Under the pieces are notes generated by a model that had not been told where the DNA came from, did no database searches, and saw nothing but the letters and a program-made list of their open reading frames with translations. 37,766 nucleotides of DNA from Escherichia coli (GTDB taxonomy: Bacteria; Pseudomonadota; Gammaproteobacteria; Enterobacterales; Enterobacteriaceae): assembly GCF_003334305.1 (NCBI RefSeq), contig NZ_QOWS01000031.1. One strand, 5' to 3'. The position numbers were made by a program, and so were the translations under genes. Each line of letters begins with the position of its first letter. Position 1 is the stretch's first letter. This document shows, piece by piece, positions 16,972 to 19,117 of the stretch.

Positions 16972-17982
16972 ATGAAGGCTGCAGTTGTTACGAAGGATCA
17001 TCACGTTGACGTTACGGATAAAACACTGCGCTCACTGAAACATGGCGAAGCCCTGCTGAAAATGGAGTGTTGTGGTGTATGTCATACCGATCTTCATGTT
17101 AAGAATGGCGATTTTGGTGACAAAACCGGCGTAATTCTGGGCCATGAAGGCATCGGTGTGGTGGCAGAAGTGGGTCCAGGTGTCACCTCATTAAAACCAG
17201 GCGATCGTGCCAGCGTGGCGTGGTTCTACGAAGGATGCGGTCATTGCGAATACTGTAATAGTGGTAACGAAACGCTCTGCCGTTCAGTTAAAAATGCCGG
17301 ATACAGCGTTGATGGCGGGATGGCGGAAGAGTGCATCGTGGTCGCCGATTACGCGGTAAAAGTGCCAGATGGTCTGGACTCGGCGGCGGCCAGCAGCATT
17401 ACCTGTGCGGGGGTCACCACCTACAAAGCCGTTAAACTGTCAAAAATTCGTCCAGGGCAGTGGATTGCTATCTACGGTCTTGGCGGTCTGGGTAACCTCG
17501 CTCTGCAATACGCGAAGAATGTCTTTAACGCGAAAGTGATCGCCATTGATGTCAATGATGAGCAGTTAAAACTGGCAACCGAAATGGGTGCAGATTTAGC
17601 GATTAACTCACGCACCGAAGACGCCGCCAAAATTGTGCAGGAGAAAACCGGTGGCGCTCACGCTGCGGTGGTAACAGCAGTTGCTAAAGCTGCGTTTAAC
17701 TCGGCAGTTGATGCTGTCCGTGCAGGCGGTCGTGTTGTGGCTGTCGGTCTGCCGCCGGAGTCTATGAGCCTGGATATCCCACGCCTTGTGCTGGATGGCA
17801 TTGAAGTGGTCGGTTCGCTGGTCGGCACGCGCCAGGATCTAACCGAAGCCTTCCAGTTTGCCGCCGAAGGCAAAGTGGTGCCGAAAGTCGCCCTGCGTCC
17901 GTTAGCGGACATCAACACCATCTTTACCGAGATGGAAGAAGGCAAAATCCGTGGCCGTATGGTGATTGATTTCCGCCGTTAA
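16972..17982 (+). CDS. adhP: Zn-dependent alcohol dehydrogenase (propanol-preferring), 336 aa
   Basis: ATG at 16972 preceded by AAGGAGG (16960-16966); motifs CGVCHTDLH and GHEGIGVV; GxGxxG-like GLGGLGNLA. Confidence 0.93.
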
Positions 17983-18128
17983 GAGGCCTTTGCTGCGAGT
18001 GCCAGTCCTGGTGTCGCAGCATCGCACTCTCTCCGACATTAAATGGCTAAATGGATTATTGTTCCTTCCTACGCAACAATAATGATAGTGTTCCTGATGA
18101 AGGAACACTACTGAGAGTAAAGACACTG

Positions 18129-18413
18129 ATGAAAATGGCCAATCATCCCCGCCCGGGGGACATTATTCAGGAATCACTGGACGAACTTAATGTCAGCCTG
18201 CGCGAGTTTGCCAGAGCAATGGAAATTGCTCCCTCAACGGCAAGCCGATTGCTGACCGGAAAAGTAGCTTTGACACCAGAAATGGCGATTAAACTTTCCG
18301 TGGTGATCGGCAGTTCGCCGCAAATGTGGCTGAATCTGCAAAACGCCTGGAGTCTGGCAGAGGCAGAAAAAACGGTGGATGTGTCGCGACTACGCCGTCT
18401 GGTTACGCAATAA
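18129..18413 (+). CDS. yddM: HTH (XRE/HigA-like) DNA-binding protein, 94 aa
   Basis: Internal ATG at 18129 gives 94-aa [45 protein letters not shown]... with HigA-antitoxin-like HTH; recognised as YddM. Confidence 0.8.
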
Positions 18414-18416
18414 AAA

Positions 18417-18442
18417 AATGGCGCTTCTTAAAGCGCCATTTT
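18417..18442. terminator. Bidirectional rho-independent terminator between yddM (+) and fdnI (-): AATGGCGCTT-ctta-AAGCGCCATT flanked by A-run and T-run
   Basis: 10-bp perfect stem with A7 upstream and TT downstream; placed between convergent genes. Confidence 0.65.
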
Positions 18443-18463
18443 CAGCTTAAAGTTCAAAAGAGA

Positions 18464-19117
18464 TTATATCCCTTCTTCACTCTCTTTTTTCGCTTCTGCC
18501 TTCTCGATTTCACGATACCAGCGCGGATGGTGTTTCTTCGCCCAGCGACGGCTCACCTTCCCTTCGATCATCCCTTTAATCGACCCTTTCACCCAGAATG
18601 CCATATACATATGGATCAGGATGGCGTGGATCAGGATGATACCCGCAGCCGCGTGGATCAGCAGGCTGTAGCGAACAACCTGCATCGGGAAGTACTGCGC
18701 AAAGTACGGACGCCAGATAATCACCCCGGTCACCAGCAGCACGAAAATCATGCTCATGATCGACCAGAACATCATCTTTTGCCCGGCGTTGTACTTACCG
18801 ACATCCGCCACTTTATGCTCATTGCCTTTCAATACTTCGACAATGTTCAACAGCCACGGAATATCTTTCTTATCCGGGATGTTGTGATGCACAAAACGCA
18901 CAAACATAAACATCAGTGCGACGAAAATCGCAATGCCGAAAAACGGGTGCAAAATGCGTCCCATCTGCGGCGTACCGAAGGTTTGCGTCAGCCATTGCAG
19001 CGTCGGGAAGAAGAACGAAATCCCGGACAGCGCCACCAGGAAGAAGCAAATCACCACGGTCCAGTGACAGGCGCGATCAATAAATTTGGTGCGCACAATC
19101 ATTTTCGACTTACTCAT
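18464..19117 (-). CDS. fdnI: Formate dehydrogenase-N gamma subunit (cytochrome b556), 217 aa
   Basis: Start chosen at ATG 19117 ([15 protein letters not shown]...); overlaps fdnH 3' end by 8 nt; multi-TM heme b protein. Confidence 0.9.

Follow-up and report, generated by a model that had tools for sequence, protein, structure and literature searches.

A solo HigA-family antitoxin gene, yddM, left behind by deletion of its toxin gene in Escherichia coli and most likely retained as a stand-alone repressor

HigB-HigA of the Proteus vulgaris plasmid Rts1 is the founding member of its toxin-antitoxin family and shares with the orthologs of E. coli YddM a toxin-first gene order and an antitoxin with an N-terminal helix-turn-helix; YddM matches Rts1 HigA (4MCX_A) at E = 1.3e-18. 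The antitoxin fold family of YddM also includes the antitoxins of GraT-GraA from Pseudomonas putida (6F8H/6F8S, E ~5e-11) and of P. aeruginosa HigBA (6JPI, 4.6e-8). Both GraA and P. aeruginosa HigA repress at palindromes; the latter has further genes under its control. In contrast to YddM as described here, both of these sequence-distant systems still have their toxins. In the Rts1 promoter, Phig, operators O1 and O2 overlap the -35 and -10 elements and bind one HigA dimer each (PMC12266136), and HigA alone represses ~1.6-fold better than the HigB-HigA complex (PMC12266136), so that a solo HigA of the Rts1 type can repress without its toxin. The two-operator layout of Phig matches that of the window, by which we mean the whole 37.7-kb (37,766-nucleotide) stretch of DNA that was analysed, whereas the locus in the window is chromosomal and toxin-less and has other operator sequences.

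Within E. coli, the HigB-HigA pair of B2 strains (HigA of CFT073; 'ParE-2/HigA-2', TA20, in AIEC NRG857c) occupies the orthologous locus between adhP and fdnI. The CFT073 HigA is identical to the YddM of the window at 93 of 94 residues and the operator half-sites are alike, but the toxin gene of 279 bp, whose B2-strain product is WP_000605676.1, is missing from the window together with its ribosome-binding site, and there are differences in the operator spacers and in the sequence that precedes O1. K-12 and HS were found by Bustamante and Vidal (2020) to keep the antitoxin alone at this parE-2/higA-2 locus, whose two genes measure 279 and 285 bp (PMC7232551). A second HigA-type protein of K-12, YbaQ (PDB 2EBY, E = 1e-8 against YddM), is 113 residues long, distantly related and encoded at another locus. 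K-12 and HS lack the gene of its partner toxin, parE-1, and CFT073 has it as a pseudogene (PMC7232551). DNA binding by YbaQ has also been confirmed by ChIP-exo (PMC6237786); ybaQ is a second E. coli HigA-type orphan with the same history as yddM. That yddM is an orphan is itself already known: RefSeq calls it a HigA family antitoxin, there is a solved structure of the CFT073 protein, and for K-12 and HS the absence of the partner toxin is published (PMC7232551). Added here are the allele frequencies in 5426 genomes, the architecture of the deletion with its surviving stop-start overlap, the footprint of two operators in several genera and the pattern of substitutions since the toxin was lost.

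The 1-kb stretch around yddM is 100% identical to E. coli strain A7, and the window is E. coli chromosome from a strain other than K-12. The gene order across the locus, taken from the list of open reading frames and the RefSeq annotation of identical DNA, is maeA, adhP and yddM followed by the convergent fdnI, fdnH and fdnG. The features referred to below are the following.

16972-17982, plus strand: adhP (alcohol dehydrogenase), upstream neighbour; open reading frame and RefSeq annotation of identical DNA
17991-18021, plus strand: adhP terminator hairpin with arms TGCTGCGA / TCGCAGCA; inverted repeat, -18.5 kcal/mol
18022-18054, plus strand: segment peculiar to the toxin-less (K-12-type) allele; alignments
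18060-18078, no strand: operator-like palindrome O1, TGTTCC-N7-GCAACA, one mismatch; pattern search
18084-18089, plus strand: candidate -10 element GATAGT between O1 and O2, inferred from the consensus of 24 promoters
18089-18107, no strand: operator-like palindrome O2, TGTTCC-N7-GGAACA, perfect; pattern search
18108-18123, plus strand: 16-nt filler CTACTGAGAGTAAAGA at the deletion site; local alignment
18124-18129, plus strand: toxin-gene vestige, the last codon and stop CAC TGA, overlapping the yddM ATG (TGATG); alignments
18129-18413, plus strand: yddM, solo HigA-family antitoxin and XRE helix-turn-helix protein, 94 aa
18415-18442, both strands: bidirectional intrinsic terminator hairpin common to yddM and fdnI; folding
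18464-19117, minus strand: fdnI (formate dehydrogenase-N gamma subunit), convergent downstream neighbour

RefSeq annotates yddM in the identical DNA of strain A7 as a gene of 285 bp. The longest open reading frame that holds it is 18051-18413, with an in-frame TAA at 18048-18050, and the start at ATG 18129, giving 94 aa, is backed by the HigA profile (which matches from residue 3), by RefSeq and by the 94-aa solved structure. The original prediction had the gene begin at 18003; given the in-frame TAA and the supported ATG at 18129, this position is not a gene start, and 18003-18128 is non-coding sequence that holds the adhP terminator, the yddM promoter and the operators. The frame stays open for 26 more codons upstream of ATG 18129, to ATG 18051, in the window and in K-12, even across a 21-bp inversion described below. 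Twenty-six stop-free codons are not unusual and lend no weight to a 120-aa form from ATG 18051, which we rejected because 18129 is where HigA profile, PDB entry and RefSeq gene alike begin.

The flanks of the gene were described correctly in the original prediction. The space between adhP and yddM, put there at about 146 bp, is exactly that (adhP stop codon at 17980-17982, yddM ATG at 18129) and is too short for a 92-aa toxin gene. The terminator said to follow yddM is the hairpin at 18415-18442, with a 12-bp stem (-16.2 kcal/mol, z = -4.1) and a UUUU tract behind it. Read on the minus strand it has a folding energy of -17.6 kcal/mol and ends in a U7 tract, so that the same hairpin is predicted also to terminate the convergent fdnI. 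A simple consensus terminator scan did not flag this hairpin, its sole flag being operator O2 on the minus strand, and an Rfam search returned only sub-threshold matches to the terminator hairpin. The adhP terminator hairpin, at the other end of the locus, is kept in all Escherichia alleles in the alignment.

The spacer between yddM and fdnI (18414-18463 in the window) varies in length among strains, being 50 bp here, 228 bp in APEC37 (L003:1015-1242) and 406 bp in K-12 (L002:1014-1419). The extra DNA consists of one or two tandem copies of a ~178-bp unit that comprises the terminator hairpin and two REP-type palindromes, and in some strains an IS200-family element is inserted in the spacer. 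Further downstream, fdnG on the minus strand has an in-frame TGA at ~22467-22469 (…NQARV*HGPT…), which we take to be the expected selenocysteine codon and because of which the list of open reading frames shows only an 803-aa fdnG fragment.

YddM is a member of the HigA antitoxin family of the Rts1/CFT073 type. The 94-aa form scores 91.5 bits against the NCBIfam profile TIGR02607 (antidote_HigA, 'HigA family addiction module antitoxin'; curated cut-off 47.7 bits), covering profile positions 1-80 of 81, and its N-terminal XRE helix-turn-helix matches Pfam HTH_3 at 2e-8. It is identical at 93 of 94 residues to PDB entries 2ICP/2ICT, 'antitoxin HigA' of E. coli CFT073; these entries are the YddM of CFT073 (PMC3968373), whose fold is that of a HigA dimer (PMC6987408). 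The next-best structures are Rts1 HigA, P. putida GraA, Coxiella VapI/HigA, E. coli YbaQ and P. aeruginosa HigA. Profile score, fold and the position of its orthologs directly downstream of a PF05015 HigB all agree on this family, as do the helix-turn-helix and HigA resemblance originally noted; a match to a non-antitoxin XRE subfamily, named in the original prediction as the outcome that would speak against it, was not what profile and structure returned. PADLOC gave only weak helix-turn-helix matches for YddM and no match for the orthologous toxin. The YddM of the window differs from the common E. coli protein only by A46V, just after the recognition helix, and this V46 form is rare (33 contigs, against more than 1000 with the common form).

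Among 5426 complete E. coli genomes, in 5414 of which the yddM locus was found, 1331 carry a HigB-type toxin gene (279 bp, 92 aa) between adhP and yddM, a count that takes in intact and frameshifted genes. The toxin gene is single copy and always beside yddM, at no more than one place per genome. Its annotation reads 'type II toxin-antitoxin system RelE/ParE family toxin'. The product has a match to Pfam PF05015 (HigB-like toxin) at 1.5e-17 and can be aligned over its whole length with HigB of Rts1, an endoribonuclease (4MCT_B, E = 8e-32, ~57% identity), of which it retains the C-terminal YEDYH. Intact alleles end ...TAT CAC TGATG, the toxin TGA overlapping the yddM ATG by 1 nt. ST131-type strains have a 1-bp frameshift in the toxin gene, seen in 16 of 39 evenly spaced toxin-bearing rows and hence in roughly 40% of toxin-bearing genomes. 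In E. coli strain A3, from a bat, the toxin gene has a 9-bp in-frame deletion that removes QVK (L056:401-670); the resulting 89-aa protein is annotated as intact.

In a collection of one genome per species, every close YddM ortholog outside E. coli is preceded by a full-length toxin ORF; in ~30 loci of such species 0-3 nt separate the end of this ORF from the yddM ortholog. The pair is present in E. albertii, other Escherichia and ~13 Citrobacter species as well as in Buttiauxella, Cedecea, Pluralibacter, Enterobacter, Chimaeribacter and Erwinia, and it adjoins fdnI in Escherichia, Citrobacter and some other genera. This distribution points to a pair ancestral at the site and a derived toxin-less state. 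Comparison of E. coli with Citrobacter gives omega values of 0.03-0.10 for both the toxin and the antitoxin genes, an indication that the pair is functional where it is intact. The comparison with other E. coli that was proposed at the outset thus yielded a toxin gene upstream of yddM, exactly between adhP and yddM and in either intact or frameshifted form, and the observed co-occurrence disposes of the possibility, raised at the outset, that YddM-type proteins never accompany toxins.

The window has lost the whole 279-bp toxin ORF together with its ribosome-binding site, AAGGA. The original prediction had proposed a search for decayed toxin sequence in 17983-18128; neither tblastn nor HMM searches found any there, and the last CAC TGA alone survives. 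Searches in six frames with 22 orthologous toxins (tblastn) and with an HMM built from the same 22 gave no toxin-like sequence at the locus or elsewhere in the window, the best match (35946-36122, minus strand, E = 0.011) being a chance match inside nhoA. The idea of a toxin-antitoxin remnant that has lost its toxin is directly supported, since orthologous loci keep the HigB-type gene of which the window retains only CAC TGA. With no toxin gene in the operon, such as a complete type II HigBA module would have, the window holds a solo antitoxin and not a toxin-antitoxin module, and its yddM is the surviving antitoxin of a HigB-HigA pair whose toxin has been cleanly deleted in most E. coli lineages. 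Alignments show the same deletion allele in K-12, APEC37, O111, O121 and most O157 strains, and a junction-spanning query found the junction shared by K-12 and the window in 3890 complete E. coli genomes.

Upstream of the operators, an unrelated 33 bp (18022-18054) stands in place of ~92 bp of the toxin-bearing alleles. This segment and the 16-nt filler (18108-18123) flank the operators, and neither has a counterpart in any toxin-bearing allele sampled. We rejected a derivation of the filler from the start or the end of the toxin gene, since its local alignment was no better than that of shuffled sequences. The heptamer AAATGGC in 18022-18054 recurs at the yddM start. The operator spacers differ between the two allele classes far more than the synonymous sites of yddM do, and no intact allele with K-12-type upstream sequence was found among the divergent toxin-bearing strains A3, AR_0013 and M16807, all of which have B2-type upstream sequence. 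A rare mosaic allele occurs in O157:H7 strain TR01 (L006 636-746), in which intact-type sequence after the adhP terminator gives way to a K-12-type O1 that is joined straight to the final 47 bp of the toxin gene, O2 and the -10 element being absent. We rejected this allele as typical of O157 or as a second major deletion: a search with its junction found only one genome at full identity, 47 of the 48 genomes that reach 80% coverage doing so at only 80-90% identity, and other O157 strains have the K-12-type deletion.

The window has kept the promoter region of the operon with its two operator-like palindromes. O1 and O2 are the only TGTTCC-N7-GGAACA-like sites in the 37.7-kb window, and the arms of O2 can be extended to 10 bp over 18086-18110. 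We compared them with the higB promoters of 24 orthologous loci, which range from Escherichia to Erwinia and Xenorhabdus. The orthologous O1 (TGTTGC-N7-GGAACA) lies at about -59 of higB with at most one mismatch in 22 of the 24, the remaining two (Pluralibacter/Enterobacter loci) having a more diverged O1, CGTTGC-N7-GCAACA, and O2 half-sites lie at about -30 in all 24. The 7-nt operator spacers vary freely, and a -10-like element (GATAGT, or TATACT or TATGAT in distant orthologs) abuts O2. Fixed half-sites with free spacers are, as read from these alignments, the predicted footprint of a dimeric helix-turn-helix repressor, and O1 and O2 are putative YddM binding sites. A consensus promoter scan found no sigma-70 site upstream of yddM and the Shine-Dalgarno sequence of the toxin gene has been lost, so yddM expression may be very low.

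The region 18059-18079 is a 21-bp quasi-palindrome that contains O1 and is exactly inverted relative to K-12 (TTGTTCCTTCCTACGCAACAA against TTGTTGCGTAGGAAGGAACAA), an inversion that swaps which of the O1 half-sites is perfect. The inverted form belongs to the lineage of the window and is found in ~1040 genomes, O111:H8 among them. It looks like the product of a hairpin template-switch mutation.

We consider it probable that these observations reflect a HigB-HigA operon that lost its toxin by one deletion, with YddM most likely now serving as a stand-alone self-repressor. An ancestral chromosomal higB-higA operon of the Rts1 type would have stood between adhP and fdnI, and in the lineage leading to this strain and K-12 a single deletion would have taken out the toxin gene (279 bp) with its ribosome-binding site while sparing the antitoxin gene and the operon promoter with both operators, of which O1 covers the -35 region and O2 immediately follows the -10 element. 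The surviving YddM, with no toxin in cis that it could neutralise, would bind as a dimeric helix-turn-helix repressor to the TGTTCC-N7-GGAACA sites of its own promoter, keep its own expression low and bind a few other chromosomal sites. YddM was one of 10 candidates confirmed by ChIP-exo in toxin-less K-12, where a motif was also derived (PMC6237786), and a CRISPRi preprint describes expression changes consistent with YddM binding sites (bioRxiv 10.64898/2025.12.20.695731). The published K-12 ChIP-exo and the purifying selection described below support the reading as a stand-alone regulator, and YddM would still repress its own gene in the present strain. A remnant of toxin loss and a stand-alone regulator, which the original prediction had offered as alternatives, are better supported as stages of one history.

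Were yddM a functionless remnant on its way to decay, its wide presence would have to reflect a recent deletion and a small mutational target. The gene is indeed dispensable, as Keio and other deletion strains exist, it has no recognisable strong promoter or ribosome-binding site, and inactivated alleles occur. The latter include a W74* nonsense allele, a loss of 29 bp between direct repeats of GAAGGAAC, which takes with it the -10 element and half of each operator, and one IS-disrupted copy; the 29-bp deletion and W74* alleles lie in toxin-less strains (L053:384-501, L054:721). W74* is nevertheless confined to 34 of the 5426 complete genomes (487 contigs of the protein collection carry the 73-aa form), 5409 of the 5426 have a full-length yddM, and the deletion allele is old, being spread over ~3890 genomes across K-12, O157, O111 and O121. 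Synonymous divergence has reached ~0.06 (window against K-12 yddM: dS = 0.061, dN = 0.005, omega = 0.08), yet WP_000781370.1 is the product of nearly all sampled copies, with or without the toxin, although these differ at 1-11 nucleotides. In ten sampled K-12-type deletion alleles, a small sample and a test that is not tree-aware, the toxin-less clade shows 13 synonymous and 2 non-synonymous changes against an expected synonymous share of 24% (binomial P = 6e-7), or 6 and 2 when only variants unseen in toxin-bearing alleles are counted (P = 0.004); recombination from toxin-bearing lineages may import pre-filtered synonymous variation and so inflate this signal of selection. The substitution pattern and the near-universal retention disfavour pure drift, and the in vivo DNA binding seen in K-12 likewise speaks against a gene without function, an explanation that we regard as improbable.

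Purifying selection fits any retained function, and one other candidate is anti-addiction or immunity: a solo YddM could be kept because it neutralises HigB-type toxins borne by plasmids or prophages, so that the cell could lose such elements, or resist their toxins, unharmed. Related toxins do circulate, with HigB homologs in 539 enterobacterial plasmid records, an Rts1-type HigB that is 56.5% identical to the chromosomal toxin, and YddM homologs (~50% identical) next to a 'plasmid maintenance system killer' gene on Stx-converting and other E. coli phages. These mobile homologs are, however, no more than 50-57% identical, a distance at which toxin-antitoxin pairs tend to be specific. Orphan antitoxins have been discussed as candidate anti-addiction modules in a review that also states that this role 'remains to be demonstrated' (PMC7354431). 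Such a role is compatible with, and does not exclude, a repressor role; as the explanation of the solo gene we think it rather unlikely, though less so than decay. It is far less probable still, to the point of being negligible, that YddM is a trans-acting antitoxin whose partner toxin is encoded elsewhere in the genome, the pair being split over two loci. E. coli carries other RelE/ParE-type toxins, which makes this possible in principle without singling out any of them. No PF05015-like sequence is present in the 37.7-kb window apart from the chance match in nhoA, the orthologous toxin is never found away from yddM in 5426 genomes, and the viability of yddM deletions argues against a partner toxin that would be left unneutralised.

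The solo YddM is thus most likely a retained, non-essential stand-alone repressor, and yddM appears to be kept by selection as the gene of a DNA-binding protein. A further-reaching version is conceivable, and we put it forward tentatively, as something we doubt more than we believe: YddM may have been domesticated and kept by selection across most E. coli as a low-level transcription factor whose targets are not confined to its own promoter, as immunity to the HigB of Stx phages and Rts1-like plasmids, or as both. If so, the repeated remodelling of the operators (the 21-bp inversion in ~1040 genomes and the changed spacers) would represent retuning of the circuit and not drift.

These results call for no change of annotation. 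They present a clean and well-sampled case of chromosomal toxin-antitoxin decay in which the toxin is the first component to disappear, through one precise deletion here, a frameshift in ST131 and rarer events elsewhere, and the antitoxin persists because losing the antitoxin first is unsafe. The locus bears on what orphan antitoxins do, and its toxin-bearing and toxin-less strains constitute a natural test pair.
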